Source: Clostridiales bacterium DTU064
Lineage (GTDB): Bacteria; Bacillota; Clostridia; Oscillospirales; CAG-272
Assembly: GCA_001513385.1 (NCBI GenBank)
Contig: LFTK01000058.1
Span: forward strand, 300 to 51,451
Length of the DNA: 51,152 nucleotides
Direction of reading: 5' to 3'
Program-made: the position numbers and the translations under genes
Notes under the pieces: generated by a model
The model's input: the letters and a program-made list of their open reading frames with translations, nothing else
Databases searched by the model: none
Told to the model about the DNA's origin: nothing
Part shown: in pieces, positions 2,513 to 47,478 of the stretch
Position numbering within the stretch: position 1 is the first letter of the stretch
Layout: each line of letters starts with the position of its first letter

Positions 2513-2596
2513 GCCGCTGTGGCGTAATCGGCAGACGCAGCGGACTTAAAATCCGCCGGAGTAAAATCCGTACCGGTTCAAGTCCGGTCAGCGGCA
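2513..2596 (+). tRNA. tRNA-Leu (anticodon UAA), type II with long variable arm
   Basis: Acceptor GCCGCTG/CAGCGGC, anticodon stem GCGGA/TCCGC with loop CTTAAAA, variable arm CGGAGTAAAATCCGT, T arm ACCGG-TTCAAGT-CCGGT. No encoded CCA. Confidence 0.9.
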
Positions 2597-2604
2597 TCAT
2601 ATAG

Positions 2605-2678
2605 CGCGGAGTGGAGCAGTCTGGTAGCTCGTTGGGCTCATAACCCGAAGGTCGGAGGTTCAAATCCTCCCTCCGCAA
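2605..2678 (+). tRNA. initiator tRNA-fMet (anticodon CAU)
   Basis: CGCGGAGTGGAGCAG...GGGCTCATAACCC...TTCAAATCC closely resembles E. coli tRNA-fMet. It has the C1-A72 mismatch and three G-C pairs closing the anticodon stem. Confidence 0.92.
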
Positions 2679-24785: not shown

Positions 24786-24928
24786 ATCAAATACTAATTA
24801 AAGTGTCAGCGCATCACACACGTTCTGTGTAAACTCTGGTCCGCCCGGCTCAAGGCCGGACATACTCCGCGGAAATTCCCCGCCGAAACGGTGGCAACCT
24901 TCCGCATCATCGCACACCAAGCTCATCT

Positions 24929-32370: not shown

Positions 32371-32403
32371 AAAAAGACGCGGCGGTTCCGCGTCTTTTTT
32401 TTT
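32371..32403. terminator. bidirectional rho-independent terminator shared by the dap-lys operon and the convergent hydrogenase locus
   Basis: aaagacgcgg / ccgcgtcttt is a 10-bp stem with a 5-nt loop, an A-run on the left and a 9-T run on the right. Confidence 0.9.
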
Positions 32404-32417
32404 ACTTATTTGCTTTA

Positions 32418-32969
32418 TTAATCAGCCAGCTTATGCTCACGGCTCACACTTCCGTCGCATACCCGGCGCCATGTGAAGGTGCCGTCCTCGTATATGATAT
32501 AGCTGTTCTCAGAATCAGACTTTGGAATTGAGACAGAACCGGGGTTTATATAAAGTACCCCTTCTCTTTCGGTGCATTCCGGGACGTGTGTATGCCCAAA
32601 GAGAAGCACCGTTCCGGGTTGAGGCTCGGGCACAAGCGACGGGTCGTTTGCATGACCGTGCACCGCATACATGACACGCTTTCCATCATAGATGACAGCA
32701 TAGCTGGCCATTATGGGAAAGTGCAACATAAGAGTGTCAACTTCCGCATCACAATTACCGCGAACAGCGATTATTTTTGACGCTTCTTCGTTGAGAAGAC
32801 TGGCGACTTCTGCCGGTGCGTAGTCGCGCGGGAGCGCGTTACGCGGCCCGTGATAGAGTATATCGCCGAGAAGCAACATATGTGTTGCGCCTGACTCGCG
32901 AAAATGCTCAACTAAAAGCTTACAAAAGTACGCTGAACCATGCAGGTCAGAAGCTATAAACAGTTTCAT
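32418..32969 (-). CDS. YfcE/MJ0936-family metallophosphoesterase
   Basis: MKLFIASDLHGS...LLLGDILYHGPRN...RGNCD...HGH...GHTH are calcineurin-like phosphoesterase motifs. The start is set at 32969. Confidence 0.8.
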   Translation of the reverse strand: MKLFIASDLHGSAYFCKLLVEHFRESGATHMLLLGDILYHGPRNALPRDYAPAEVASLLNEEASKIIAVRGNCDAEVDTLMLHFPIMASYAVIYDGKRVMYAVHGHANDPSLVPEPQPGTVLLFGHTHVPECTEREGVLYINPGSVSIPKSDSENSYIIYEDGTFTWRRVCDGSVSREHKLAD

Positions 32970-32993
32970 GTCACACTCTCCCACCTTTTATTC

Positions 32994-33257
32994 TTACTTT
33001 ATTGCTTCGCAGGCCGGCAGAACCTTCTCACGGAAGAAATTGCGCGCTTTATCGGCTGTTATTGTGTACTTCGTACCGTTAAGCGACACAGAAACACCGG
33101 GCTTTGAGCAGTTTTTCATGCAGAAATCAGCGTGGAAATCGATCTTGTCGTGCAGGTTATACTCCTCGATCAAATGTGTAAATGACTGAACGACGTTATA
33201 TGCGCCGGCGAGGTGACAAACGCTACCTATGCATACCGAAAGATCAACCATTTCCAT
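32994..33257 (-). CDS. small thioredoxin-like [2Fe-2S] ferredoxin (HydD-like accessory subunit)
   Basis: About 87 aa with four Cys in the CIGSVCH...CMKNC pattern. The start is set just after the hydA stop (ATG 33257), since the longer track ORF would overlap hydA. Confidence 0.6.
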   Translation of the reverse strand: MEMVDLSVCIGSVCHLAGAYNVVQSFTHLIEEYNLHDKIDFHADFCMKNCSKPGVSVSLNGTKYTITADKARNFFREKVLPACEAIK

Positions 33258-33261
33258 TTTC

Positions 33262-34965
33262 TCAACCCTCATCCTTTCCATGTGAGCAGCAACCGTAATG
33301 AACGTGAAGCAGCTCGTGAACACGCCCCTTGAGTATGCCGCTGTAAAGCGACATCATGAGCGGGTTTTCCTCAGAACGTCTGATACCGGATACGCGGTCA
33401 GCAGCATAAAGGCCTTCCCCGCGCTCACGGCGGCCACGCATTGAAGCAAGCGGCTGTCCGGCTCCGTTTACACAACCGCCGGGGCAAGCCATAACCTCAA
33501 CAAGGTCAAAGTGTTCGCCATTTTTAACGCGCTCGATGATCTTTTCTGCATTATGAAGACCGCTGACAATAGCAATGCGAAGTGTTTTATCGCCATACGG
33601 GAGTTCTAATTCTTTGATTCCATCCATACCGCGAACGCCGGAAGCGGCAGTCGCCGTGAGCGACGCGCGTGACTTGTCAGTTGTAACGCGGCGAAGAACA
33701 GCTTCGGTTACGCCACCCGTTACACCAAATATAACACCGGCGCCGGACATAGTGCCAAACGGCATATCAACGGCCTCGGGTTCAATCTCATCAAAGATGA
33801 TACCGGATTCTTTTATCATTCTGACGAGCTCCTGCGTCGATATAACGGCGTCAACATCCGGTTTGCCATCACGCTTGAATTCAGGGCGTTCGGCTTCAAA
33901 CTTCTTTGCTGTACACGGCATGACAGCCACGTGGAAAAGATCTTTTGACGAATGTTTGCTTTCCTCTTTTAGTATTGATGCAAACATCTGCATCGGGGAG
34001 CGGCAAGTCGAAACATTCGGCATAAGCTCGGGATACTTTCTTTCTACAAAGTTTATCCATGCCGGGCAGCATGAAGTAAAGAGCGGGAGCTTTTCACCGG
34101 ATTCAAGCCTACCTATAAACTCTTCGGATTCTTCAAGAACCGTCAGGTCTGCAGCAGTCGATGTGTCATAAACCTCATCAAAACCGATTCTGTGCAGAGC
34201 GGCAACGATTTTACCCATCGCGTTGTCGCCTTCCTTCATGCCGAATTCACGGCCGAGAGCAACGCGGACAGCCGGTGCTATCTGCACGGAAACCTTTGTG
34301 TTGCCGGAACGCAGAGCAGCCCATACGCGGTCGGTATCGTTTCTTACAGTAATTGCTCCTGTCGGGCAAACAGCCGCACACTGACCGCAGCCAACGCAGG
34401 GAGATTCGGAAATCGGCTTATTAAACGCCGTGCTTATTCTCATCTTCGAGCCACGGTAAGCGTAATCTATTGCACCGACGTTTTGAATTTCGTTGCACAT
34501 GCGTACGCAGTCACCGCAAAGTATGCACTTGCTGGGGTCGCGCACGATGCAGGGTGATGAAGTGTCACGCTTTTGCTCAGGGGCAGTGTTCGGGAAGCGG
34601 ACACCCTCAATATTAAAGCGTATAGCAAGCTCCTGCAGTTTGCAGTTTCCGCTCTTTTCACATGTTGTGCAGTCACGGCAGTGGTTTGCAAGCAGAAGCT
34701 CAAGAATCATCTTGCGATATTTGCGAAGACGCTCGGAATTTGTCTTTATAGACATACCGGGACGGGGCGGCGTTGAGCAAGCAGCTTCAAGCACACCGCG
34801 TTCGTTTTCTACCATGCACATACGGCATGCGCCGTATACGGAAAGTTCGGAATAATAGCAGAATGTCGGCATGCTGATACCGACTTTACGGATCAGCTCA
34901 AGTAGATTCTTTTCGTTCCCGATTTCTACCGGGATGCCGTCAATAGTCATTGTTGCTCGGCTCAT
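33262..34965 (-). CDS. hydA: [FeFe]-hydrogenase catalytic subunit HydA (NADH-linked multimeric / bifurcating type)
   Basis: 567 aa with an N-terminal 2Fe-2S domain, a NuoG-like His-ligated cluster and two 4Fe-4S motifs. H-cluster motifs are FTSCCPAW, MPCTAKKFE and EVMACPGGCVNGAGQP. Confidence 0.93.
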   Translation of the reverse strand: MSRATMTIDGIPVEIGNEKNLLELIRKVGISMPTFCYYSELSVYGACRMCMVENERGVLEAACSTPPRPGMSIKTNSERLRKYRKMILELLLANHCRDCTTCEKSGNCKLQELAIRFNIEGVRFPNTAPEQKRDTSSPCIVRDPSKCILCGDCVRMCNEIQNVGAIDYAYRGSKMRISTAFNKPISESPCVGCGQCAAVCPTGAITVRNDTDRVWAALRSGNTKVSVQIAPAVRVALGREFGMKEGDNAMGKIVAALHRIGFDEVYDTSTAADLTVLEESEEFIGRLESGEKLPLFTSCCPAWINFVERKYPELMPNVSTCRSPMQMFASILKEESKHSSKDLFHVAVMPCTAKKFEAERPEFKRDGKPDVDAVISTQELVRMIKESGIIFDEIEPEAVDMPFGTMSGAGVIFGVTGGVTEAVLRRVTTDKSRASLTATAASGVRGMDGIKELELPYGDKTLRIAIVSGLHNAEKIIERVKNGEHFDLVEVMACPGGCVNGAGQPLASMRGRRERGEGLYAADRVSGIRRSEENPLMMSLYSGILKGRVHELLHVHYGCCSHGKDEG

Positions 34966-34967
34966 CG

Positions 34968-36851
34968 TCAGCCCTCCTTAATAGCATGGAACGGACATGA
35001 ATTGACACAAGCTTCGCATTTTATGCACTTGGACTGGTCAATCACAAATGGTTCCTTTATTTTACCTGATATTGCACCCACAGGGCATACACGCGAGCAC
35101 TTTGAACAGCCGCGGCAAAGCTCTGGGTTGATTGTTATCTTAATTAAGCTCTTGCACCTACCTGTCGGGCAAACGCCATTAACGTGTGCAACATATTCGT
35201 CGCGGAAGTACTGAAGCGTACTGCGGACAGGGTTCGGCGCTGTTTTGCCAAGACCGCAAAGCGCCGTCGAGATAATCATATCCGCAAGCTCGGAGAGTGT
35301 ATCAATGTCACTTTCCTCACCCTTACCTGCTACAATTCGCTCAAGTATTTCAAGCATACGCTTTGTACCTTCACGGCACGGCACGCACTTACCGCATGAC
35401 TCGTTTTGAGTGAAGTTCATAAAGAAGCGGGCAACTTCAACCATGCACGTATGCTCGTCCATAACGACAAGTCCGCCGGAGCCGATAATAGCCCCAACAT
35501 TTTTAAGCGAATCAAAGTCAAGCGGCAGGTCAAGATGTTCCTTTGTCAAGCATCCGCCTGACGGCCCGCCGATCTGAACAGCTTTAAATTCAGCGCCACC
35601 GCGGCAGCCGCCGCCGATGTCATATATAATTTCGCGGAGCGTCGTACCCATCGGAACTTCAATAAGTCCGGTGTTTTCAATATTTCCTGTCAGCGCGAAT
35701 GCCTTTGTACCTGTATTGTTCGGACTGCCGTATGATGAGAACCATGCGGCACCGCGGTTGATTATCTGCGCGACGTTTGCATACGTTTCTACGTTGTTCG
35801 GTACTGTCGGCTTGCCAAAAAGCCCGCGCTCAACAGTCAGCGGCGGACGCACACGCGGGAATCCGCGCTCGCCCTCGATGGAGCTTATAAGTGCTGTTTC
35901 TTCGCCGCATACAAACGCACCTGCGCCACGGTTGATGTGGATTTCAAAATCAAAGCCTGAACCTAAGATGTTTTTACCAAGCAAACCAATTTCTTTTGCC
36001 TGATTTATAGCATTTTTGAGTCTGTTAACCGCCATCGGATACTCGGCGCGAACATAAATATAGCCTTCAGTTGCACCTGTCGCAACGCCGGCAATGAGCA
36101 TACCCTCAATAACCCTATGCGGGTCGCCTTCCATAATGCTTCTGTCCATGAAGGCGCCGGGGTCGCCCTCGTCACCATTGCAAAGGATATATTTCTGATC
36201 AGCCTGCAGCTTGCGAACGGTTTCCCACTTGATACCAGCCGGGAAGCCGGCGCCGCCACGTCCGCGTAAACCGGACGCCTTGATTTCAGCGACGATTTCG
36301 TCACCGGTCATATCGAATAAAGCTTTTTCAAGAGCTGAATAACCGCCGACAGCTATGTATTCGGTTATAGATTCAGCATCTATATGGCCGCAGTGTTCAA
36401 GAACAACTCGCGTCTGCTTTTTGTAAAACGGGACATCTTCCTGACGCGGATATATCTGACCGTTTTTACGGTACGCAAGACGCTCGACAAATTCACCGCC
36501 TATAATTGTCTTGTCAATTATTTCTTCACAGTCCTCAATCTTTACTTTTGTATAAAGCCAGCCTTGAGGCTCTACCCTTACAAGCGGTCCCATTTCGCAG
36601 AAGCCGTGGCATCCGCATCTCTTAAGACCAACAGTCTCGTCATGTGCTTCAAGTTGAAGCTCGACTGAGTAAGGAAGCCCCTTTTCCTTCATGAGCTCGG
36701 AAAGTCTTTCATATATCTTGAGTGAGCCGCCGGCTACGCAACCTGTACCGGCACATACAAGCAATTTTCTTTTCTGTGCTTCGAGCGCGCTCATAGCAGC
36801 TTCGCGATATGAGTCAAGCTCGGCTCTCGTCTTAAGTATTTGCAAGTTCAA
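34968..36851 (-). CDS. hydB: hydrogenase NADH/FMN-binding subunit HydB (NuoF-like)
   Basis: 627 aa with an N-terminal thioredoxin-like 2Fe-2S domain, GRGGAGFP FMN/NADH motifs, ESCGKC.PCREG and two C-terminal CxxCxxCxxxCP motifs. The TTG start is ambiguous (36851 or 36845). Confidence 0.92.
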   Translation of the reverse strand: MNLQILKTRAELDSYREAAMSALEAQKRKLLVCAGTGCVAGGSLKIYERLSELMKEKGLPYSVELQLEAHDETVGLKRCGCHGFCEMGPLVRVEPQGWLYTKVKIEDCEEIIDKTIIGGEFVERLAYRKNGQIYPRQEDVPFYKKQTRVVLEHCGHIDAESITEYIAVGGYSALEKALFDMTGDEIVAEIKASGLRGRGGAGFPAGIKWETVRKLQADQKYILCNGDEGDPGAFMDRSIMEGDPHRVIEGMLIAGVATGATEGYIYVRAEYPMAVNRLKNAINQAKEIGLLGKNILGSGFDFEIHINRGAGAFVCGEETALISSIEGERGFPRVRPPLTVERGLFGKPTVPNNVETYANVAQIINRGAAWFSSYGSPNNTGTKAFALTGNIENTGLIEVPMGTTLREIIYDIGGGCRGGAEFKAVQIGGPSGGCLTKEHLDLPLDFDSLKNVGAIIGSGGLVVMDEHTCMVEVARFFMNFTQNESCGKCVPCREGTKRMLEILERIVAGKGEESDIDTLSELADMIISTALCGLGKTAPNPVRSTLQYFRDEYVAHVNGVCPTGRCKSLIKITINPELCRGCSKCSRVCPVGAISGKIKEPFVIDQSKCIKCEACVNSCPFHAIKEG

Positions 36852-37323
36852 GTTCCTCCCTCAGAGTTTTAATCAGTTCTGACGCTTTATCCGGCGTCAT
36901 CGCGGGATGGACGACATCATTTACCGTAATGACAGGTGCAAGCCCGCACGCGCCAAGGCATGATACAGTCTCAACTGTGAAATTGAGGTCATCTGTCGTC
37001 TTCTTAGAGGCCGAAAGGCCAAGCTCCGAGCGAAGTCTCTCAAGTATCGGGATTGAATTTCTCACGTGGCATGCTGTGCCGTCGCAAACCTTTATTACGT
37101 ATTTTCCCTTTGGTTCAAGAGAAAAGTTTTCATAAAACGTTGCAACGCTATATGCCTTCGCTTCGCTCACACCGAGCTTTTCTGCGATACGCGGAAACAC
37201 CTCCCTCGGTATATAGTGGTAGTGCTCCTGGATTTCCTGCAATATCGATATAATCGCACGCGGATTGTGTCCGTTTTGTTCGATTATTTTATCGACTACA
37301 GTGAAATCGAACTGTTTCGACAT
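36832..37323 (-). CDS. hydC: hydrogenase subunit HydC (NuoE-like [2Fe-2S])
   Basis: 163 aa, ...ISILQEIQ..Y.YIP......IA..LGV...K.Y.VATFY..F...PKGKY.I.VC.GTAC...CLGACGLAP. Confidence 0.92.
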   Translation of the reverse strand: MSKQFDFTVVDKIIEQNGHNPRAIISILQEIQEHYHYIPREVFPRIAEKLGVSEAKAYSVATFYENFSLEPKGKYVIKVCDGTACHVRNSIPILERLRSELGLSASKKTTDDLNFTVETVSCLGACGLAPVITVNDVVHPAMTPDKASELIKTLREELELANT

Positions 37324-37335
37324 ATAAATCCTCCA

Positions 37336-38562
37336 TTAAAAATAATTGACCTTAATTTTTTTACCCATTTCCTCAAGACATCCGATTAGCTCCTCGACAA
37401 GCTTCATTTTTATGCTGAATCCGATCGGAAGATCCGGGTTTTGATGAGCAGGGTTTACAGCAGTTCCGATAAAGAAATTTATATCTGTTGCATCTTCAAA
37501 GAGCATACGCGCTACAAGCGAAGCTCCGTCTTTTTTATAGCTCCATTTTTCATATGAGCTGTTATCTAAAAGGTAATTTTTCGCATATTCAAGCACACGG
37601 CTGATTGTTATAATTCCCTCGGTTACAAGGTCCACCCCTTCGATTTCCGCTGTCGGCGGTATATCAGGATCGTGGTAGACGAGCTTTGTTTTTATAGGCT
37701 TACCGAGGTATTCCGCAGCAATACTCGATGTCGTACCTCCGCATATGATGTGCTTGCCTTCACGCGAGAAAAACAAAGACATCATGCGCTCGCAGTCGTC
37801 CGGGTTTCTGGGCGGCCCGATACAGATATTTATCTGCAAACGCTCGCGGATTCTCACAGCGCACACCGTAGCATCATCGCCTACGTTGCCGTTATAAAGA
37901 CGCATCGTTTCCGCTGAAAGTATCGTTGCAAGTGTTTTTGCCGTAAAGTTGGCTTTTGTGTAAGGTGCCATAAACGCCGCTATGTCTTTGCGTCCCCAGC
38001 CGAAGTTGTACGACACACCGACACCGGCATGTTCGATTCCGTCGCTTATTAAAAGATAAACATCGTCTTTTTCAAGTGTCAGTTCGGAATAGCGTATCGA
38101 CTTACCGTCGATTATCCTTGTTTCATACGGGAATTCGACCATTTTGCCGCCGCGAAGAAGTATTACACCGGGATTATCGTACTGTATGATACGTGTTTTC
38201 CCGTCAGATGAAATATGCATTATTGTAAAAGTCGAGTATGCAATACCCCGGACAGAGCAGACCGGCAGTGTAGCCGTAATTGTCGAAACAGCCTCAGACA
38301 GCGGAAGCCCCGACGCTATCATTGTTGATATAATTCTCGAGGTCAGTGTCGATAAAATGTTTGCTTTTACTCCGCTGCCAAGTCCATCGGCTAAAACAAT
38401 CACGGTTGACGTGTCATCCGTGCTGCGTACAACCTCAACATTGTCTCCGCAAAGCTGCTCTCCGGTGTGACATAAGGATACGAAACCGACATCAGCAAAT
38501 AGCTGTGCTATTTTTTTGTCTTTATTTACTTGTGTCTTGATCGTATCCGTCCTTATGTTCAT
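37336..38562 (-). CDS. SpoIIE/PP2C-family serine phosphatase with an unassigned C-terminal domain of about 165 aa
   Basis: 408 aa with CGDNVEV, LADGLGSGVKANILS, ISDGIEHAG and GDDATVCAV (PP2C metal-binding Asp motifs). AAGGAGA RBS. The 5' end overlaps hydS by 41 nt. Confidence 0.85.
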   Translation of the reverse strand: MNIRTDTIKTQVNKDKKIAQLFADVGFVSLCHTGEQLCGDNVEVVRSTDDTSTVIVLADGLGSGVKANILSTLTSRIISTMIASGLPLSEAVSTITATLPVCSVRGIAYSTFTIMHISSDGKTRIIQYDNPGVILLRGGKMVEFPYETRIIDGKSIRYSELTLEKDDVYLLISDGIEHAGVGVSYNFGWGRKDIAAFMAPYTKANFTAKTLATILSAETMRLYNGNVGDDATVCAVRIRERLQINICIGPPRNPDDCERMMSLFFSREGKHIICGGTTSSIAAEYLGKPIKTKLVYHDPDIPPTAEIEGVDLVTEGIITISRVLEYAKNYLLDNSSYEKWSYKKDGASLVARMLFEDATDINFFIGTAVNPAHQNPDLPIGFSIKMKLVEELIGCLEEMGKKIKVNYF

Positions 38563-40237
38563 TAATAATCGTCTCCTTGAGCTTTGATAACGCTATTTTT
38601 GTCTCCGCTGCCGTTTCGCCAAGAAGAGATGCAATTTCATGGACTATCCGAAGCTGACGCTCGACGACTTCGTCAGCAACCTCAACAGTTTTTCTGCCAA
38701 GCTCCTCTTTTTTACGGCGCTCTTCCTCGGCATCGGTGACATCGCGCAAAATACCTATCAGTATACGCGATTTCTTGTCATGAACAACTGTAACCTCGAG
38801 ATATTTTTCGTATTCGGGATAATAATTGAGCTTATCACGAACAACGGCAGCCCCTGACAGTGTATCGGTAAATGGAAGCGGATCGAAAATGCGCACAATC
38901 AGCTCGCCTAAAACATCACTTTTCTGACGAACGCCAAGCATACGCATGGCAGCAGGATTGATATCCTGTATTTCCATGTCTTCATTTACGACAATGATGC
39001 CGTTCGGGTTGTTTCTTACAATCGTATCAGAAAACCTCTCCGCCTTTTCCATCAGATAAGGCAGGCACATGCTGATGTCAGCCTTACCTTCAAGGACAGC
39101 GATAGCCTTTTCACGGCACGTCGGATAACCGCATGAACCGCAGTTGAGTTCATCTTCCGGCTTTGTCTTACCGGTAAGTCGCAGAACGTCGAGAATTTCC
39201 GCTTCTGTCGGGGTATATTTTTCTCTTGATATGTTTGTATGTACGGTCAGGAGCCTTGCATTTGATATGTCGTCTGTCGGAAAATCATCTTTTCCGGCAT
39301 AATTGACGATATCGCGGTAGTGACGAACAGGTGCGTTTTTATATTTCTCCATTATAGGACCGCCAATACAGCTTCCTGAGCACGCCGACATTTCAATGAA
39401 GCACTTGCCAAGCCCACCGGCTTCAATATCGTGAATCGCCGCTATGCAGTTATCAATACCTGACACCGAAATCCGTGTATATTCACATTCAGCCGGAAAA
39501 TCCATAGTCTTTATAATGCCACCGTCCGTCGGGAAAATACGCGCACGGCTGTCAGGGCGTCTGTCGGTTTTCTTTTCCAGTGTAATTCCGGACGCCGCCA
39601 TCATTGACGACAGTTCTTCAAATGTCAAAACGGCGTCAGTGAGACTGTCCTCAGCTTCAGCTTTTTTAGAAAGGCACGGCCCGATGAAAACGACCTTACA
39701 TCCCGGCATCCGGTGTTTTATATCAATGGCGTGCGCCGCCATCGGGCTGACGACCGGTGCAAGGTATGGAATAACAGCGGGGTGATATTTACGTATCAAT
39801 AAATTAACGGAGGGGCAGCAGCTTGAAATGAGTATTTCATACTCACCCCTTGAAAGCAGTTCCTCATATTGTCGCTTGACGAGTGTTGCGCCGACAGCCG
39901 TTTCCTCTGCATAGCTGAACCCGAGAGCAAATAATGCATGTGACAATGCATCAAAACCGACGCCCTCAAAATAGGCAGCAAAGGATGGCGCCACGCTTGC
40001 CACTACCGGTGCATCACCGGCTAAAAGCACGCGTACATATTCTGTTGCATCGGCTATCTCTTTCGCATTTTGCGGGCAAACGACAAAACAATGACCGCAC
40101 AGTATGCATTCATCTTTAATGACATGAGCTTGCCCCGCAGAGAAACGTATAGCTTTAACCGGACAGTTGCGTATACATTTATAACAGTTTTTGCAGTTGG
40201 ATTTTTTAAATCTCAAATATTCCTGCACTGACGCCAT
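38522..40237 (-). CDS. hydS: putative sensory [FeFe] hydrogenase (HydS-like, group C) with C-terminal Cys motif, PAS domain and coiled-coil tail
   Basis: Two CxxCxxCxxxCP motifs. Variant H-cluster motifs SSCCPSV, GPCLSKKAE and EMSACSGSCIGGP. Then CGSCGYPTC and a PAS-like segment. The start is uncertain: ATG 40237 abuts AGGAGG, GTG 40228 has a 9-nt spacing, and the track TTG at 40291 has no RBS. Confidence 0.85.
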   Translation of the reverse strand: MASVQEYLRFKKSNCKNCYKCIRNCPVKAIRFSAGQAHVIKDECILCGHCFVVCPQNAKEIADATEYVRVLLAGDAPVVASVAPSFAAYFEGVGFDALSHALFALGFSYAEETAVGATLVKRQYEELLSRGEYEILISSCCPSVNLLIRKYHPAVIPYLAPVVSPMAAHAIDIKHRMPGCKVVFIGPCLSKKAEAEDSLTDAVLTFEELSSMMAASGITLEKKTDRRPDSRARIFPTDGGIIKTMDFPAECEYTRISVSGIDNCIAAIHDIEAGGLGKCFIEMSACSGSCIGGPIMEKYKNAPVRHYRDIVNYAGKDDFPTDDISNARLLTVHTNISREKYTPTEAEILDVLRLTGKTKPEDELNCGSCGYPTCREKAIAVLEGKADISMCLPYLMEKAERFSDTIVRNNPNGIIVVNEDMEIQDINPAAMRMLGVRQKSDVLGELIVRIFDPLPFTDTLSGAAVVRDKLNYYPEYEKYLEVTVVHDKKSRILIGILRDVTDAEEERRKKEELGRKTVEVADEVVERQLRIVHEIASLLGETAAETKIALSKLKETIINEHKDGYDQDTSK

Positions 40238-40426
40238 CCTCCTGCCATCAGGCTCTTGTCTTTTTATTCTGCATATCGATCCGATATACAACAGTCGTCA
40301 TATATAATGTTGACATGCTGTATTTTTATTTTTCCGTCTTGTTATTCTGCCGTTTTAATATCCCTATGTTACAGTTTTTTGTGCTTTATCGGTTGCTTTA
40401 AAAAACCCAAACAAAGCACTATTATA

Positions 40427-41182
40427 TCACTCATACTCGACGACGTCTACCCATCTGCGAAGAAGAGTTTCCTCTCCTTTTTTTCCCTTAACAGATTGCG
40501 ATGCAGCGACAATCGGTATCCATTTGTTGACGTATCTCCGATCTGTGCCGCTCATCTTGCAGAAAAGCTCAATATATTTCTCTGCAAGCTCCACCTTACC
40601 CTCAAGATTGAAAAGCAAGAACGTGCGCGCAACGTCGGCTGAGGCGTTTCCTTGCGTTGCATGAGCCCAGTCGATAATATACGGGGTGCCTTCGTCTGTG
40701 ATGATTATATTTGTTGGATTGAAGTCGCCATGGCAAAGCTTGTTATGCTTCGGCATACCATCAAGGCGTGTATGAAGCTCGTATTTTATTGTGTCACTGA
40801 ACGAGGTCAGATCTATTTTCCTGTGCATCTTTTCGGTCAGACGCCCGAGCATCGGGCAGGTTTTTGAATGAACCTCCATCTGAAGCGACACAAAAAGCTT
40901 TAAGTATTCGTCCTCGCGCTCAGGATGAAGTTGCATGAGTTCCGCAAGAGTTTTGCCGGGGATGTAGTCGAGAACAATCGCCCATCTCTCGCCGTCCTTA
41001 CGCACTTCACGTACTTTTGCAATGTTTAAGCCTGTTTCCTCAACACGCGCCTGATTCAGCGCTTCGTTGAGCACCATCGCCTTAGAGTAATCCTCATTAA
41101 ACGACTTGACTGTACAGTCTCCCTCTCGGTAGATAATTTTTGCCTCTTGTTTTGATATAATTTCTTTCCCTTCGAAGCTCAT
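40427..41182 (-). CDS. APH-fold (aminoglycoside/choline-kinase-like) phosphotransferase, small stand-alone kinase
   Basis: LCHGDFNPTNIII (Brenner motif HGDxxxxN) and YIIDWAHA (DxD-type metal site). The start is set at ATG 41182 (GAGG 7 nt upstream, inside the last adhE codons). The track GTG at 41188 is too close to the SD. Confidence 0.75.
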   Translation of the reverse strand: MSFEGKEIISKQEAKIIYREGDCTVKSFNEDYSKAMVLNEALNQARVEETGLNIAKVREVRKDGERWAIVLDYIPGKTLAELMQLHPEREDEYLKLFVSLQMEVHSKTCPMLGRLTEKMHRKIDLTSFSDTIKYELHTRLDGMPKHNKLCHGDFNPTNIIITDEGTPYIIDWAHATQGNASADVARTFLLFNLEGKVELAEKYIELFCKMSGTDRRYVNKWIPIVAASQSVKGKKGEETLLRRWVDVVEYE

Positions 41183-41191
41183 GGTCACGCC

Positions 41192-43816
41192 TCACTTTCC
41201 GTAATATGCATTTAAGTACATTTGCTTTATTTCCGAGATAAGCGGGTAACGCGGGTTTGCGCCTGTGCACTGGTCATCAAATGCCTGCTCAGACATTTCA
41301 TCAAGCCGTGCGAGGAAGTCCTCTTCATCCGGTACATAGTCGCGAATCGTCGGCTTAATACCAACGCGCTCTTTAAGTTCGTCAATCTTCTTAATGAGAG
41401 CCTCAAGTTTTTCCTCGTCTGTTTTTGCATTGCCGCCGACACCGAGGTAATCAGCTATCTCTGCATAACGGGCAAGAGCATGCGGGTGGTCGTACTGCGG
41501 GAATGTACCCATCTTTGTCGGCGCTTCAGCCGCATTGAAACGAATGACTTCATCTATCATGAGCGCGTTTGCAATACCATGCGGCAGGTGGTGGAAAGCG
41601 CCGAGCTTGTGAGCCATAGAATGGCATACACCGAGGAAAGCATTTGCAAATGCCATACCGGCGATTGTTGCAGCATTCGCCATTTTCTCGCGAGCGACAT
41701 TATCCGGCACTCCTGTGCATGCGCTGTCATATGCGCGTGGCAGATAATCAAATATCATACGCAAAGCGCGAAGCGCAAGACCGTCTGTATAGTCGGTTGC
41801 CATAATAGACGCATACGCTTCAAGCGCGTGTACCATTGCGTCAATGCCTGACGCCGCTGTCAGCCCGCGCGGCGCTGTCATCATAAGATCGGCGTCGACT
41901 ATCGCCATTTTCGGCAGAAGTTCATAGTCAGCAAGTGGGTATTTTATGCCCGTCGTCTGGTCTGTAATAACGGCAAACGGCGTCACTTCACTGCCTGTTC
42001 CTGCAGATGTAGGAATGGCGATGAAATAAGCTTTCTCACCCATCTTCGGGAATGTATAGACGCGTTTGCGAATGTCCATGAAGCGAAGGGCCATGTCGTG
42101 GAAGTCAACATCCGGATGCTCATAAAGCACCCACATGATTTTACCTGCGTCCATAGCGGAACCACCGCCGACAGCTATTATTACATCAGGCTCAAACGCT
42201 GTCATTTCAGCGGCACCGGCCTCGGCACATGCAAGCGTCGGGTCAGGCTCGACATTTGAAAATGTCTTAAATGTTATACCAAGCTCTGTCAGCTTTTTCT
42301 CAATCGGCTTTGTCGCACCGCTCTTATAAAGGAACGTGTCGGTAACAATGAAAGCGCGCTTTTTATTTAAAACTGTGCCAAGCTCATTGAGCGCCACGTC
42401 AAGGCAGCCCTTTTTGAAATAAACTTTTTCGGGTGCACGGAACCAGAGCATGTTTTCTCTCCTTTCGGCAACCGTTTTTATGTTAAGTAAGTGACGTACA
42501 CCGACGTTTTCTGATACGCTGTTCCCGCCCCAGCTTCCGCATCCGAGCGTGAGCGACGGTGCAAGACGGAAGTTGTATAAATCACCGATACCGCCCTGTG
42601 AGGATGGTGTGTTTACAAGTATGCGGCAGGTTTTCATGCGTGCCTCAAAGCGTGCAAGCTTATCGGCTGCTTTATTTACATCAAGATAAATAGACGCTGT
42701 GTGTCCGTAGCCACCGTCGGTTATCAGGCGCTCTGCTTTTGAGAATGCGTCGTCGATGTCGGTGGCACGGTACATAGCAAGAACAGGCGACAGCTTTTCG
42801 TGCGCAAATTCCTCCGAAAGCTCGACGCTCTCGACTTCGCCTATGAGTATTTTTGTCGTCTCAGGAACTTCAAATCCGGCAAGTGATGCAATTGTGTGAG
42901 CTGTCTGCCCGACGATTTTCGCATTGAGCGCGCCGTTTATGATAATCGTCTTTCTTACCTTTTCCGTTTCTTCAGGTGATAAGAAATAGCAGCCCCTGTA
43001 AGCGAACTCTTTCTTTACCTTATCATATATAGAATCAAGCACGATAACAGACTGCTCGGACGCGCATATCATGCCGTTGTCGAACGTTTTTGAGTGAATT
43101 ATAGAGTTGACAGCAAGGATTATATCAGCGCTGTCGTCAATTATCGCCGGTGTGTTGCCGGGTCCGACGCCAACTGCCGGTTTTCCGCTTGAATACGCAG
43201 CCTTTACAAGTCCCGGGCCGCCTGTGGCAAGTATTAAGTCGGACTCCTTCATGAGCAGATTTGTCAGATCAAGGCTTGGAACATCAATCCACGCAATTAT
43301 ATCTTCCGGTGCCCCTGCGGCAACTGCTGCTTCAAGTACTATTTTTGCAGCGGCGACAGTAGATTCCTTTGCGCGGGGGTGCGGGCTGATGATAATGCCG
43401 TTGCGTGTTTTCAGCGCAAGTAAAGTCTTGAATATTGTTGTCGACGTCGGGTTTGTTGTCGGTATAACAGCGGCAATCAACCCAACCGGCTCGGCTATTT
43501 TTTTGTAGCCGGCAGCCTTGTCTTCCTCGATTACACCGCACGTTTTGACATTTTTATAAGTGTTATATATATATTCAGACGCGTAATGATTCTTAATTAC
43601 TTTATCTTCGACGACACCCATCCCCGTTTCAGCAACTGCCTGCTTCGCGAGCGGAAGGCGCGCGCTGTTCGCGGCAAGCGCCGCGGCGCGGAATATTTCA
43701 TCAACCTTTTCCTGCGTGAAGTTCGCGTAAATTTGCTGTGCCGCACGTACGCGTGATATCGCCGATTCAAGCGTTTCCACATTGTTAACAATTTCATATG
43801 TTCTTACCGTTTTCAT
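41192..43816 (-). CDS. adhE: bifunctional acetaldehyde-CoA / alcohol dehydrogenase
   Basis: 874 aa with an N-terminal ALDH domain (catalytic Cys in NGMICASEQS) and a C-terminal Fe-ADH domain (GGGSAMDAGK, HSMAHKLG...H). Confidence 0.96.
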   Translation of the reverse strand: MKTVRTYEIVNNVETLESAISRVRAAQQIYANFTQEKVDEIFRAAALAANSARLPLAKQAVAETGMGVVEDKVIKNHYASEYIYNTYKNVKTCGVIEEDKAAGYKKIAEPVGLIAAVIPTTNPTSTTIFKTLLALKTRNGIIISPHPRAKESTVAAAKIVLEAAVAAGAPEDIIAWIDVPSLDLTNLLMKESDLILATGGPGLVKAAYSSGKPAVGVGPGNTPAIIDDSADIILAVNSIIHSKTFDNGMICASEQSVIVLDSIYDKVKKEFAYRGCYFLSPEETEKVRKTIIINGALNAKIVGQTAHTIASLAGFEVPETTKILIGEVESVELSEEFAHEKLSPVLAMYRATDIDDAFSKAERLITDGGYGHTASIYLDVNKAADKLARFEARMKTCRILVNTPSSQGGIGDLYNFRLAPSLTLGCGSWGGNSVSENVGVRHLLNIKTVAERRENMLWFRAPEKVYFKKGCLDVALNELGTVLNKKRAFIVTDTFLYKSGATKPIEKKLTELGITFKTFSNVEPDPTLACAEAGAAEMTAFEPDVIIAVGGGSAMDAGKIMWVLYEHPDVDFHDMALRFMDIRKRVYTFPKMGEKAYFIAIPTSAGTGSEVTPFAVITDQTTGIKYPLADYELLPKMAIVDADLMMTAPRGLTAASGIDAMVHALEAYASIMATDYTDGLALRALRMIFDYLPRAYDSACTGVPDNVAREKMANAATIAGMAFANAFLGVCHSMAHKLGAFHHLPHGIANALMIDEVIRFNAAEAPTKMGTFPQYDHPHALARYAEIADYLGVGGNAKTDEEKLEALIKKIDELKERVGIKPTIRDYVPDEEDFLARLDEMSEQAFDDQCTGANPRYPLISEIKQMYLNAYYGK

Positions 43817-43881
43817 AAAAACGAACCAACCCTTCTAAAGAAGCTTAAAATGATTTTACATATGATTATTTAATTAATGTT

Positions 43882-44565
43882 TTACTTGTCATCATCAACA
43901 GATGCAACATTTGATTCTCTTTCCAATACCTCACGGAGAGCCCGTGACAGTACGGCGAGTGACGCCGCCATATTTTCGTTTTGAATCAATATCCCCTCGG
44001 GAACATTCAGATGTACGGGAGAAAAATTCCATATAGCACGGACACCACCTTCAATTAAGAGATTGCATACCGATTGTGCTGCCGCTGCTGGAACAGTTAT
44101 TATCCCGATGTGAATATTCATCCTCTTACATAACTTAACAATTTCATCCGAATGAAACACCGGTATATTTTTTATTTTTGTCCCAACGACAGACTCGGCA
44201 ACATCAAATGCAGCAACAATATTTAACCCATAATCACGAAAACCCTCGTAGGATAACAGCGCATGGCCAAGAGACCCCGCACCTACAAGGACAGCATCCG
44301 TTGAATTGTTATAACCCAAAACAGATTCGATATCACTTATTAGAGTTTTAACGTCAAAGCCTTGTCTTGGCCTGCCGCTTGACGAGCATACGGCTGCAAA
44401 ATCTTTTCTGACCTGAATTTCTCCATATTTAAAATGCGCAGCTACTGTCGGTGCCGAAACTACTGTACACCCTTCGGCTTCAAGCTTTCTCAAATAGTCG
44501 AGATAATATGGCAGTCTCTGTATCGTCTGCACAGACAGCGTTGTCGCATCGCTTCTCCTTTGCAT
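43882..44565 (-). CDS. rex: redox-sensing transcriptional repressor Rex
   Basis: 227 aa with winged helix RLPYYLDYLRKL..EG...VSA......F, and a Rossmann motif VGAGSLGHAL. Confidence 0.93.
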   Translation of the reverse strand: MQRRSDATTLSVQTIQRLPYYLDYLRKLEAEGCTVVSAPTVAAHFKYGEIQVRKDFAAVCSSSGRPRQGFDVKTLISDIESVLGYNNSTDAVLVGAGSLGHALLSYEGFRDYGLNIVAAFDVAESVVGTKIKNIPVFHSDEIVKLCKRMNIHIGIITVPAAAAQSVCNLLIEGGVRAIWNFSPVHLNVPEGILIQNENMAASLAVLSRALREVLERESNVASVDDDK

Positions 44566-44604
44566 CGCACTCGCTCCTTTTTAAATAGATATCCTGTTAT
44601 CGAT

Positions 44605-44634
44605 ATTATATTATCTATATTGTATTTATGTCAA
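44605..44634 (-). promoter_or_regulatory. sigma-A promoter of rex (TTGACA-18 nt-TATAAT)
   Basis: On the minus strand, -35 TTGACA is at 44634-44629 and -10 TATAAT at 44610-44605, about 40 nt upstream of the rex ATG. Confidence 0.7.
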
Positions 44635-44729
44635 CATACAAAATGTAAAATCATATTGACGAAATATCCTTTAATTGTTGTACAAATCACTAACAAAAAG
44701 TGATGATAAGAGTTTCATTCAAAACAATG

Positions 44730-44769
44730 CTCCCTGCGTGAAATATTTCTCGCAGGGAGTGTTTTGTTT
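44730..44769. terminator. orphan 30-bp near-perfect palindrome with flanking T/A runs (intrinsic-terminator shape; alternatively a protein operator)
   Basis: ctccctgcgtgaaat | atttctcgcagggag has a single mismatch. It is followed by tgttttgttt and preceded by caaaacaatg. No gene converges on it from either side. Confidence 0.5.
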
Positions 44770-44933: not shown

Positions 44934-46241
44934 ATGGTTTCACTTTGGGAAAAAACATCAGCCATCCCGGGCTTTGATCGACTTGAGGGAGATATAAACA
45001 CCGATGTTTTAATCATCGGCGGTGGGCTTGCCGGCATTTTATGCGCATATAAGCTAAAGCAGGCAGGGGTTGACTATGTTCTGGTGGAAGCAAACAGGGT
45101 TTGCAGCGGCATAACAAAGAACACAACGGCAAAGATCACGTCACAACATGGTTTTATTTACGAAAAACTTATCCGCCAGTTCGGTGAGGATACGGCAAGG
45201 CTTTATCTGCGGGCAAATGAGGAAGCTGTTGACAGCTACCGCAAGCTATGCGAGAACATTGACTGTCATTTTGAAGAAAAAGACAATATCATCTACTCGA
45301 GAAAAAGTATCAGCAAAGTCAAAAAAGAAATCGACGCGCTCCATACTCTCGGCTACCCTGCCGAAATTATAGATAACTTGCCGCTCCCATTCCCTACATT
45401 CGGCGGGGTGAAATTTAAAAATCAGGCACAGTTTAATCCGCTTGAGTTTGTCACCGCTATTGTGCAGGGGCTTCGCATTTACGAACACACGACAGTTCGC
45501 GAGCTTATCGGCACAAAAGCCATAACAGACAACGGCAACATCAAAGCAAATAGAATAATTGTCGCAACACACTTCCCTTTCATAAACAAACACGGCGCGT
45601 ATTTTTTAAAGATGTTCCAGCACCGCTCTTATGTCATCGCACTTGAGGACGCACCACAACTTGATGGCATGTATGTCGATGAAGCGGCAAACGGTCTTTC
45701 TTTTCGCAATTACGAAAACCTGCTCTTAATAGGTGGCGGCGACCATCGGACGGGTAAAAAGGGCGGAGGTTGGGGTGAGCTTCGTAGCTTTGCTAAAAAG
45801 TACTTCCCCGGCGCGAGAGAAAAATACCACTGGGCGACGCAAGACTGCATAACGCTTGACGGCGTGCCGTATATCGGGCGGTATTCGTCCGGCACGGAAA
45901 ACTTATACGTTGCCACCGGCTTTAACAAATGGGGGATGACCTCCTCTATGGTCGCCGCAACGCTTCTCACCGATATGCTCTGCGGGAAGAGCAGTCCATA
46001 TGAAGATGTCTTTAATCCTTCGCGCACAATTTTGCGGCCGCAGCTTGCCAAAAACGCCGTTGAAGCTGTTGTCAACCTGCTGACTCCCACAGCCCCGCGC
46101 TGCCCCCACCTCGGATGCGCGCTCAAATGGAATCCTACGGAGCGCACATGGGATTGCCCATGCCACGGCTCACGCTTCGCTGCTAATGGAAAGCTCATCG
46201 ACAATCCTGCAACGGGAAATTTGAATATAAGAAAAGGTTAA
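44934..46241 (+). CDS. FAD-dependent oxidoreductase fused to a C-terminal Rieske [2Fe-2S] domain
   Basis: 435 aa with N-terminal DVLIIGGGLAG dinucleotide motif and C-terminal CPHLGC...CPCHGS Rieske motif. Confidence 0.8.
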   Translation: MVSLWEKTSAIPGFDRLEGDINTDVLIIGGGLAGILCAYKLKQAGVDYVLVEANRVCSGITKNTTAKITSQHGFIYEKLIRQFGEDTARLYLRANEEAVDSYRKLCENIDCHFEEKDNIIYSRKSISKVKKEIDALHTLGYPAEIIDNLPLPFPTFGGVKFKNQAQFNPLEFVTAIVQGLRIYEHTTVRELIGTKAITDNGNIKANRIIVATHFPFINKHGAYFLKMFQHRSYVIALEDAPQLDGMYVDEAANGLSFRNYENLLLIGGGDHRTGKKGGGWGELRSFAKKYFPGAREKYHWATQDCITLDGVPYIGRYSSGTENLYVATGFNKWGMTSSMVAATLLTDMLCGKSSPYEDVFNPSRTILRPQLAKNAVEAVVNLLTPTAPRCPHLGCALKWNPTERTWDCPCHGSRFAANGKLIDNPATGNLNIRKG

Positions 46242-47389: not shown

Positions 47390-47478
47390 CGGAGAGGGAG
47401 GGATTCGAACCCTCGGTCGGGTATTAGCCGACACACGATTTCCAGTCGTGCGCCTTAGACCAGCTCAGCCACCTCTCC
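47390..47478 (-). tRNA. tRNA-Ser (anticodon GGA), type II
   Basis: The minus strand reads GGAGAGGTGGCTGAGCTGGTCTAAGGC...CTGGAAA (anticodon loop)...long variable arm...GGGTTCGAATCCCTCCCTCTCCG. Confidence 0.92.

Follow-up and report, generated by a model that had tools for sequence, protein, structure and literature searches.

Gene array linking Rex, AdhE, a small kinase, a putative sensory hydrogenase, a PP2C phosphatase and HydABC in uncultured Clostridia, and its possible role at the branch point between ethanol and hydrogen

The DNA analysed here, below called the window, is a stretch of 51,152 nucleotides (nt) of contig LFTK01000058.1 from Clostridiales bacterium DTU064. Its minus strand carries ten co-directional genes between positions 32418 and 44565, transcribed in the order rex, adhE, a gene for an APH-fold kinase, hydS, a gene for a PP2C phosphatase, hydC, hydB, hydA, a gene for a small [2Fe-2S] protein and a yfcE-like gene (Table 1). 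The array unites two competing reductant sinks, AdhE for ethanol and a HydABC-type hydrogenase for H2, with the sensor Rex (NADH/NAD+) and the putative H2 sensor HydS, and it is a copy, from uncultured Clostridia in a bioreactor metagenome, of a widespread fermentation-balancing cluster. An earlier reading of the window (the sequence-only reading) had named the genes from the letters alone. Pfam and NCBIfam bore out the identity of all ten, the junction lengths proved right within a few bases when they were re-read from the sequence, and the hairpin at 32371-32399 is, as had been claimed, the only strong terminator of the locus.

Table 1. Features of the array and its borders; positions are counted from the first nucleotide of the window (aa, amino acid residues; FMN, flavin mononucleotide).
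Feature	Position	Strand	Basis or remark
Promoter 5' of rex, TTGACA-18 nt-TATAAT, 12/12 sigma-70 match	44605..44634	-	Consensus match
rex, redox-sensing (NADH/NAD+) transcriptional repressor, 227 aa, GxGxxG motif	43882-44565	-	PF06971 and PF02629; NF003994, 278.8 bits (cutoff 130)
adhE, bifunctional acetaldehyde-CoA/alcohol dehydrogenase, 874 aa	41192-43816	-	NF010378, 1380.9 bits
APH/choline-kinase-fold phosphotransferase, 251 aa	40427-41182	-	Pfam/NCBIfam
Kinase-hydS spacer, 189 nt, AT-rich, non-coding	40238-40426	-	Relatives have one or two small [2Fe-2S] genes here
hydS, putative sensory (group C-type) [FeFe]-hydrogenase	38522-40237	-	Fe_hyd_lg_C, PF04060 FeS and PAS
SpoIIE/RsbU-type PP2C phosphatase, 408 aa	37336-38562	-	PP2C part aa 20-238; C-terminal domain aa 240-408 (nt 37336-37845)
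hydC, NuoE-like [2Fe-2S] subunit	36832-37323	-	Pfam/NCBIfam
hydB, NuoF-like FMN/NADH subunit	34968-36851	-	N-terminal thioredoxin-like [2Fe-2S] domain, C-terminal 2x[4Fe-4S]
hydA, catalytic [FeFe]-hydrogenase subunit, predicted HydABC-type (electron-bifurcating-type)	33262-34965	-	Pfam/NCBIfam; 8a6t_A
Small thioredoxin-like [2Fe-2S] protein, 4 Cys, ~85-87 aa	32994-33257	-	Cys pattern CxxxxxC...CxxxC
YfcE-family metallophosphoesterase/phosphodiesterase, last gene of array	32418-32984	-	NF006988, 210 bits
Bidirectional intrinsic terminator, hairpin 32371-32399, 12-bp stem between A run and T run	32371..32408	.	Common to convergent lysA

Between rex and adhE there are 65 nt, in which no structure was found, and between adhE and the kinase gene 9 nt, the GAGG Shine-Dalgarno sequence of the kinase gene overlapping the adhE stop codon. 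The gap that follows is 189 nt, or about 198 nt if hydS begins at a GTG codon 9 nt downstream. This spacer has a 12-bp hairpin that lacks a U tract, and a promoter-like sequence, TAGACG-17-TATAAT (10/12), is found by the kinase stop codon at 40449-40421. Because of these two elements the array may form one transcript or two. Further down, hydS and the phosphatase gene overlap by 41 nt, 12 nt separate the latter from hydC, hydC and hydB overlap by 20 nt, and hydB, hydA, the small gene and the yfcE-like gene follow each other at distances of 2, 4-10 and 9 nt, respectively. A 109-aa open reading frame (ORF) for the small gene that overlaps hydA was rejected as an over-call; the homologues have 79-88 aa, and the start is therefore most likely at 33257 or 33251, just past the hydA stop codon.

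The locus is a further copy of a described locus type and not a new linkage; the same gene set has already been described in Clostridium (Acetivibrio) thermocellum and in Ruminococcus albus. In C. thermocellum, Cthe_0422 is listed as Rex, Cthe_0423 as AdhE, Cthe_0424 as an aminoglycoside phosphotransferase, Cthe_0425 as hypothetical, Cthe_0426 as an Fe-S cluster domain protein, Cthe_0427 as SpoIIE, Cthe_0428 as a 24-kDa subunit, Cthe_0430 as an Fe-only hydrogenase and Cthe_0431 as hypothetical (Wilson et al., PMC3848806). Cthe_0422-0432 have been described as a co-regulated redox region that responds together to furfural (PMC3848806), and it has further been proposed that Cthe_0425-0426 form a sensory hydrogenase and Cthe_0428-0430 a bifurcating hydrogenase (PMC3990059). 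The order of the locus tags, known here from the gene tables of these papers alone, is the same as in the window. However, the window has the 189-nt spacer in place of an equivalent of Cthe_0425 between the kinase gene and hydS, and no recognisable Rex box.

On pRUMAL01 of R. albus 7 the order is LysR, Rex, adhE, phosphotransferase, two (2Fe-2S) ferredoxin-domain genes, HydS-type hydrogenase, SpoIIE phosphatase and monomeric hydrogenase. The shared genes have the same order as in the window, hydS and the phosphatase gene likewise overlap, and the identities are 57% for the kinase, 55% for HydS and 61% for the phosphatase. The R. albus locus differs in having a monomeric ferredoxin-dependent HydA2 and not HydABC, two small ferredoxin genes before hydS, and a LysR gene upstream. 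Co-culture with an H2 consumer lowered a "putative eight-gene cluster" of R. albus 111-fold, a response that Greening et al. attribute to H2 sensing (PMC6776011); we take the eight genes from rex to the hydrogenase on pRUMAL01 to be this cluster. The HydABC version of the locus is found in the same order, at the sequence level, in the metagenomic relatives L087/L088 and L091/L092. Since pRUMAL01, Cthe_0422-0432 and these metagenomic loci all match, the window is a further member of the described cluster.

Two more distant systems are of relevance. The Thermoanaerobacterium hfsABCD operon resembles the locus in encoding a HydS-like protein (HfsB), a PP2C-type phosphatase (HfsC) and a hydrogenase (HfsD) (PMC11837493). 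Deletion of hfsB, the hydS homologue, raises both ethanol production and the adhE transcript; alcohol dehydrogenase activity goes up while aldehyde dehydrogenase activity does not, and the authors suggest post-transcriptional control (PMC5707799). The HoxBC-HoxJ-HoxA system of Ralstonia eutropha follows the same logic, in that H2 is detected by a low-activity hydrogenase and the signal handed on to a phospho-signalling protein, which sets how much hydrogenase is expressed (PMC5707799). The proteins are unrelated, however, and the [NiFe] sensor, histidine kinase and response regulator on which Ralstonia relies are all absent here.

In all, 160 related loci were compared, 80 sampled from the kinase side in species-representative genomes and 80 from the phosphatase side in metagenomes. 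Both samples lean to close relatives, and two of the 80 phosphatase-side loci are the window's own contigs. The kinase has at least 582 matching stretches in the species-representative genomes. On this side adhE lies directly upstream of the kinase gene in 76 of the 78 assessable loci, mostly 4-18 nt away, and rex directly upstream of adhE in 22 of 55. HydS follows in 54 of 74 loci, and both hydS and the phosphatase gene are found downstream in 48 of the 64 that could be assessed. All 54 loci with kinase and hydS have one or two small thioredoxin-like [2Fe-2S] genes between them (two in 43 loci). HydB and HydC are found in none of the 80, the usual effector being a HydA2-like hydrogenase of about 473 aa.

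Seen from the phosphatase side, hydS lies directly upstream of and overlaps the phosphatase gene in every assessable locus (63/63), and the kinase gene is found upstream in 42 of 51. The downstream effector is HydA2-like in 44 of 59 loci and HydCBA in five, and most loci also have the small ferredoxin gene before hydS. The hydS-PP2C pair is thus the invariant core of the cluster, the kinase accompanies it in about 75-82% of the loci, and kinase and phosphatase are separable modules. Synteny of the kinase gene with hydS-PP2C had been set beforehand as a check on the sequence-only reading; it is frequent, so the proposal stands on this point, but it is not obligate. What had been called a kinase/phosphatase pair is adjacent in most loci, while each member also occurs without the other, so that the pairing itself is an assumption. 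Since the same order recurs in many independent genomes, the array is not a product of chance.

The hydrogenase of the window is predicted to be HydABC of the electron-bifurcating type, judged by its composition of HydA, a NuoF-like HydB and a NuoE-like HydC. HydA is closest to chain A of the solved electron-bifurcating HydABC 8a6t (E = 1e-170) and HydB to chain B (E = 8e-242). The small [2Fe-2S] protein encoded after hydA is an orthologue of the product of the post-hydA small gene in the relatives and is 58% identical to the copy in L091. The window lacks the small thioredoxin-like [2Fe-2S] gene found before hydS in the relatives but retains the paralogue after hydA, and a tblastn search of the 189-nt spacer gave no remnant of it. 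The loss of this gene, with the spacer in its place, is the one structural peculiarity of the window.

The YfcE-family gene recurs in the cluster family (L016, L033, L035, L040, L067, L124, L125, L128, L132 and L143). It is found upstream of rex, between the phosphatase gene and hydA2, or, as in the window, at the end of the operon. Its recurrence at three positions suggests a functional tie to the cluster.

HydS consists of 2x[4Fe-4S] (Fer4 models, aa 28-76), an H-cluster domain (PF02906, aa 95-312, E = 2e-44), a four-Cys FeS domain (PF04060, aa 382-411), a PAS domain (PAS_8/PAS_9, aa 423-520) and a C-terminal helical tail. The H-cluster motifs read SSCCPS, GPCLSKK and EMSACSGSC. The L1 motif, at aa ~145-155 of the 571-aa form of HydS, is SSCCPS in the window and SSCCHS in most relatives. 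In HydS of Thermotoga maritima (TmHydS), three second-sphere residues are changed relative to prototypical enzymes, C299 to A, M353 to G and M497 to S (PMC10055695). The window HydS shares the M to G and M to S changes; however, it keeps the proton-relay Cys, unlike TmHydS with A131. No group C HydS turned up among solved structures. The sequence-only reading held that the signalling output of HydS-type proteins is unresolved in the literature, and indeed a recent paper still calls for the identification of HydS interaction partners (PMC13104023, 2026).

The phosphatase matches PF07228 (E = 2.5e-15), its PP2C metal-binding and catalytic motifs are invariant, and its nearest folds, as the top Foldseek matches, are SpoIIE, RsbU and RsbX. 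The protein is 100% identical on two bioreactor-metagenome contigs. A feature absent from the sequence-only reading is an extra C-terminal domain, a conserved alpha/beta domain of 169 residues (aa 240-408). It has no Pfam match at E <= 10, and when PDB sequences were searched with a profile of the protein the matches were confined to the PP2C part. When modelled alone the domain gave a predicted local distance difference test (pLDDT) score of 89.7 and a predicted template modelling (pTM) score of 0.86. The second strand is followed by an invariant GGTTS loop that resembles a phosphate- or ligand-binding loop, and through which the domain probably binds a ligand or a partner.

The best PDB neighbours of this domain are methylglyoxal synthases (E ~0.01, TM 0.4-0.5). 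An hhalign comparison with an approximate E. coli MgsA sequence placed GGTTS over TGTTG at a probability of 0.08. In view of the weak structure match and this low probability, an assignment as methylglyoxal synthase-like was dropped. The Pfam, PDB profile and fold searches gave no sign of a STAS or GHKL domain hidden in the C-terminus. At 50% identity the domain family comprises about 1060 representatives, nearly all with the same two-domain architecture; stand-alone versions of about 160-170 aa are found in other organisms (P0267, P0268, P0273 and P0301).

The kinase matches the APH model PF01636 with 51.5 bits (cutoff 23.2), while the Hanks-type Pkinase model PF00069 reaches 20.6 bits, below its cutoff of 31.7. 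K26, the HGDFNPxN loop (H151-G-D153-x4-N158) and D171 are invariant in 21 homologues, which makes it very probable that the protein is an active phosphotransferase. Among solved structures the choline kinase LicA comes nearest (E = 4e-5), the other weak match being the N-lobe of StkP; the sequence is compatible with a protein as well as with a small-molecule substrate. The kinase family comprises more than 8000 clusters at 90% identity, with a length fixed at about 249 aa and an identity of 60-68% to the window protein, which is itself identical to a protein annotated in a metagenome-assembled genome of a "Clostridiales bacterium". Distant homologues of about 30% identity on Clostridium estertheticum plasmids are unlinked to adhE. 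An adhE-kinase pair is present in Collinsella aerofaciens (L094, NZ_OY725717.1, 81062-84563), with a kinase 45% identical to that of the window and no hydS, PP2C or rex gene nearby. As Collinsella belongs to the phylum Actinomycetota, the linkage of adhE and kinase crosses phyla.

The AdhE of the window is about 75-82% identical to the AdhE proteins of related clusters. When 66 kinase-linked AdhEs, the Collinsella protein included, were compared with six unlinked ones, 21 columns were specific to the kinase-linked clade. Residues with a hydroxyl group among them are S375, T502, Y597, T/S674 and Y827. Phylogeny confounds the comparison, so that these columns are a weak lead only. H241, S375, T502, Y597, T674, M769-G770 and Y827 are at least 95% conserved in the kinase-linked proteins (three of them invariant) and absent from the unlinked; they may be the signature of a clade, or mark a surface for docking or phosphorylation. 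Literature searches for an AdhE kinase or for AdhE phosphorylation in these organisms gave nothing relevant.

According to the sequence-only reading the locus encodes no canonical phospho-acceptor parts. A profile scan of the ten locus genes and the ten flanking ORFs agrees with this, as it found no STAS domain, GHKL/HATPase_c kinase, sigma factor or response regulator; for the remainder the claim holds by the ORF list, that is, as judged from ORF positions and N-terminal sequences only. This part of the window contains groESL, a ribosomal-protein operon, a dap/lysA block, a DAO/Rieske oxidoreductase, an XRE regulator, a sulfatase-family protein and a glucanotransferase. The locus resembles the partner-switching modules RsbU/RsbV/RsbW and SpoIIE/SpoIIAA/SpoIIAB in having a phosphatase of the same SpoIIE/RsbU branch of PP2C. 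It differs from them in that it has no STAS antagonist, GHKL kinase or sigma factor, that its kinase has the APH fold, and that its phosphatase carries the uncharacterised domain C-terminally and not a regulatory domain N-terminally.

Rex operators were sought with the consensus TTGTTAAnnnnTTAACAA or TTGTGAAnnnnTTCACAA, in three scans of the window against the consensus and one scored scan that covered the upstream regions of rex, adhE and hydS. Among the relatives, 20 of 56 loci have Rex boxes of at least 12/14 upstream of adhE, compared to 3% of random background windows, and in L037, L078, L085, L010, L034 and L044 near-perfect boxes precede rex by about 25-40 nt. These sites make Rex autoregulation well supported for the family, while the scans found no recognisable operator in the window. 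For the control of adhE and hyd genes by Rex, given as established in the sequence-only reading, this locus thus offers no operator in support, its best match being 11/14; the boxes of the relatives, upstream of adhE or rex, match at 12-14/14.

An inverted repeat, ATAGATA-20 nt-TATCTAT at 44585-44618, overlaps the -10 element of the rex promoter. It is not a Rex box; it could be a candidate operator of a different kind. A palindrome with 25-nt arms, CTCCCTGCG...CGCAGGGAG, at 44721-44768 gives a hairpin flanked by an A run and a T run and has no Rfam match. Its place is the intergenic stretch from which rex (-) and the gene of the DAO/Rieske oxidoreductase (44934-46241, +) diverge, and it resembles a bidirectional terminator though no gene ends there. 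Rfam gave no RNA family in the locus.

The overall picture that we favour, with a probability of roughly 0.55, is that an H2-sensing HydS-PP2C unit and an adhE-coupled kinase oppose each other and thereby shift the split between ethanol and H2. HydS and the phosphatase would form a single sensor-transducer unit; the overlap of their genes, seen in every relative, leads one to expect that the two proteins are made together. The redox state of the H-cluster in HydS would be relayed through the C-terminal FeS/PAS/helical part and set the activity of the phosphatase, which in turn would reverse Ser/Thr phosphorylation on a protein other than a STAS-type antagonist. In this genome the small APH-fold kinase, predicted to be translationally coupled to adhE, would be the most likely opposing kinase. 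The output would move electron flow between ethanol and H2 by way of AdhE activity, of transcription through Rex or an unlinked regulator, or of both.

AdhE, HydB and Rex had been put forward as targets by their proximity. Of these, AdhE and Rex are kept as the best candidates, and a hydrogenase component is rated less likely. AdhE is a tentative first choice, while Rex, and equally an unlinked protein, must be considered more doubtful. It is rather unlikely that the target is HydS, HydABC or the small ferredoxin, and to the same degree that the kinase acts on a small molecule instead.

A number of observations weigh against this picture. About 25% of the kinase loci are adhE-kinase only (e.g., L001), and nine of 51 phosphatase loci lack the kinase (among them L121, L129, L169 and L179). 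The order rex-kinase-small-hydS-PP2C-hydA2 is found without adhE in L143, L151, L156, L157 and L167, hydA2 being seen where the contig reaches far enough; the kinases of these loci are 43-54% identical to that of the window. The nearest solved relative of the kinase, LicA, is a small-molecule kinase, and the Pkinase model stays below its cutoff. The C-terminal cluster of a group D HydS keeps its redox state under H2 (PMC13104023), which makes the relay route inside HydS uncertain. The promoter-like site and the hairpin in the 189-nt spacer permit two transcription units, and both the consensus and the scored scans found no recognisable Rex operator in the window, the best sites being badly placed. 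Finally, the four genes of the Thermoanaerobacterium hfs operon name no kinase, rex or adhE, the latter being located elsewhere on the chromosome (PMC11837493).

Several of these points could also be explained by two independent modules that share an operon. The kinase would then be an accessory of AdhE, be it a protein kinase dedicated to AdhE or a kinase for small molecules that is bound up with AdhE chemistry, and would have no functional connection to the phosphatase, while HydS-PP2C would act on an unlinked phosphoprotein produced by an unlinked kinase. Such an arrangement agrees with the quarter of the species loci, and the Collinsella pair, in which adhE and kinase stand without hydS-PP2C, with the nine loci and the hfs operon in which hydS-PP2C stands without the kinase (PMC11837493), with the promoter-like site and hairpin that divide the two halves of the window, and with a choline kinase as the nearest solved relative. 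It is less easily reconciled with the adjacency of the modules in 75-82% of the loci, sampled from either side, and the position of the kinase gene in the adhE-less loci, directly after rex and before hydS, is hard to square with a purely AdhE-bound accessory. We regard independent modules as possible, yet on the unlikely side.

A more specific form of the opposing kinase and phosphatase is that the APH-fold kinase is dedicated to AdhE or Rex and is opposed by the H2-sensing HydS-PP2C unit, whose C-terminal domain would read a phospho-ligand. This version is more speculative still. If true, it would constitute a previously uncharacterised phospho-switch that does without STAS and GHKL parts and ties ethanol flux directly to the partial pressure of H2, and at least several hundred species of gut, rumen and bioreactor Clostridia would have it.

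The control might also be purely transcriptional and metabolic. Rex, perhaps together with an unlinked LysR-type regulator, would then run one long operon according to NADH/NAD+, phosphorylation would have no role, and HydS would be a low-activity hydrogenase or an accessory subunit. Rex boxes do occur in the relatives, LysR genes adjoin the cluster in R. albus, L087, L089 and L091, the C. thermocellum region is co-regulated, and HydS has retained the H-cluster proton-relay Cys (SSCCP) that TmHydS lacks at A131 (PMC10055695). However, the catalytic residues of both the phosphatase and the kinase, invariant across hundreds of species, point to selection for enzymatic activity. Moreover, deleting hfsB has stronger phenotypes than deleting the entire operon, and the authors interpret this as regulation (PMC5707799), and no Rex box was found in the window. 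Control without phosphorylation is for these reasons considered improbable.

It is very improbable that the window holds a degenerating copy, in which loss of the small [2Fe-2S] gene before hydS uncoupled or inactivated the sensor and left a Rex/sigma-70-driven adhE-kinase unit and a separate hydrogenase unit: such genes are present in all 54 species loci with kinase and hydS, Cthe_0425-0426 are treated together as the sensory hydrogenase (PMC3990059) and the 189-nt spacer is non-coding with no gene remnant, but the remaining genes are intact and their motifs conserved, the window keeps a paralogous small [2Fe-2S] gene after hydA, L169 is likewise without the pre-hydS small gene yet keeps rex-hydS-PP2C-hydCBA-small, and two independent bioreactor contigs share the arrangement of the window.

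In cellulolytic and gut Clostridia the cluster stands where the routes to ethanol and to H2 part, a branch point that bears on the engineering of biofuel strains, on interspecies hydrogen transfer and on rumen methane. As the locus type was already known, the existence of the window copy adds little, and the useful output is comparative: hydS-PP2C as a fixed core, a very widespread and highly conserved kinase that is usually coupled to adhE and detachable from either module, and a phosphatase with a dedicated uncharacterised domain. These points narrow what HydS might signal to down to a short testable list, without solving the question.

Elsewhere in the window, an S10-Clostridia ribosomal-protein leader upstream of the ribosomal protein operon and three tRNA genes were found, at 24837-24918 (-), 2513-2678 (+) and 47390-47478 (-), all of them ordinary.

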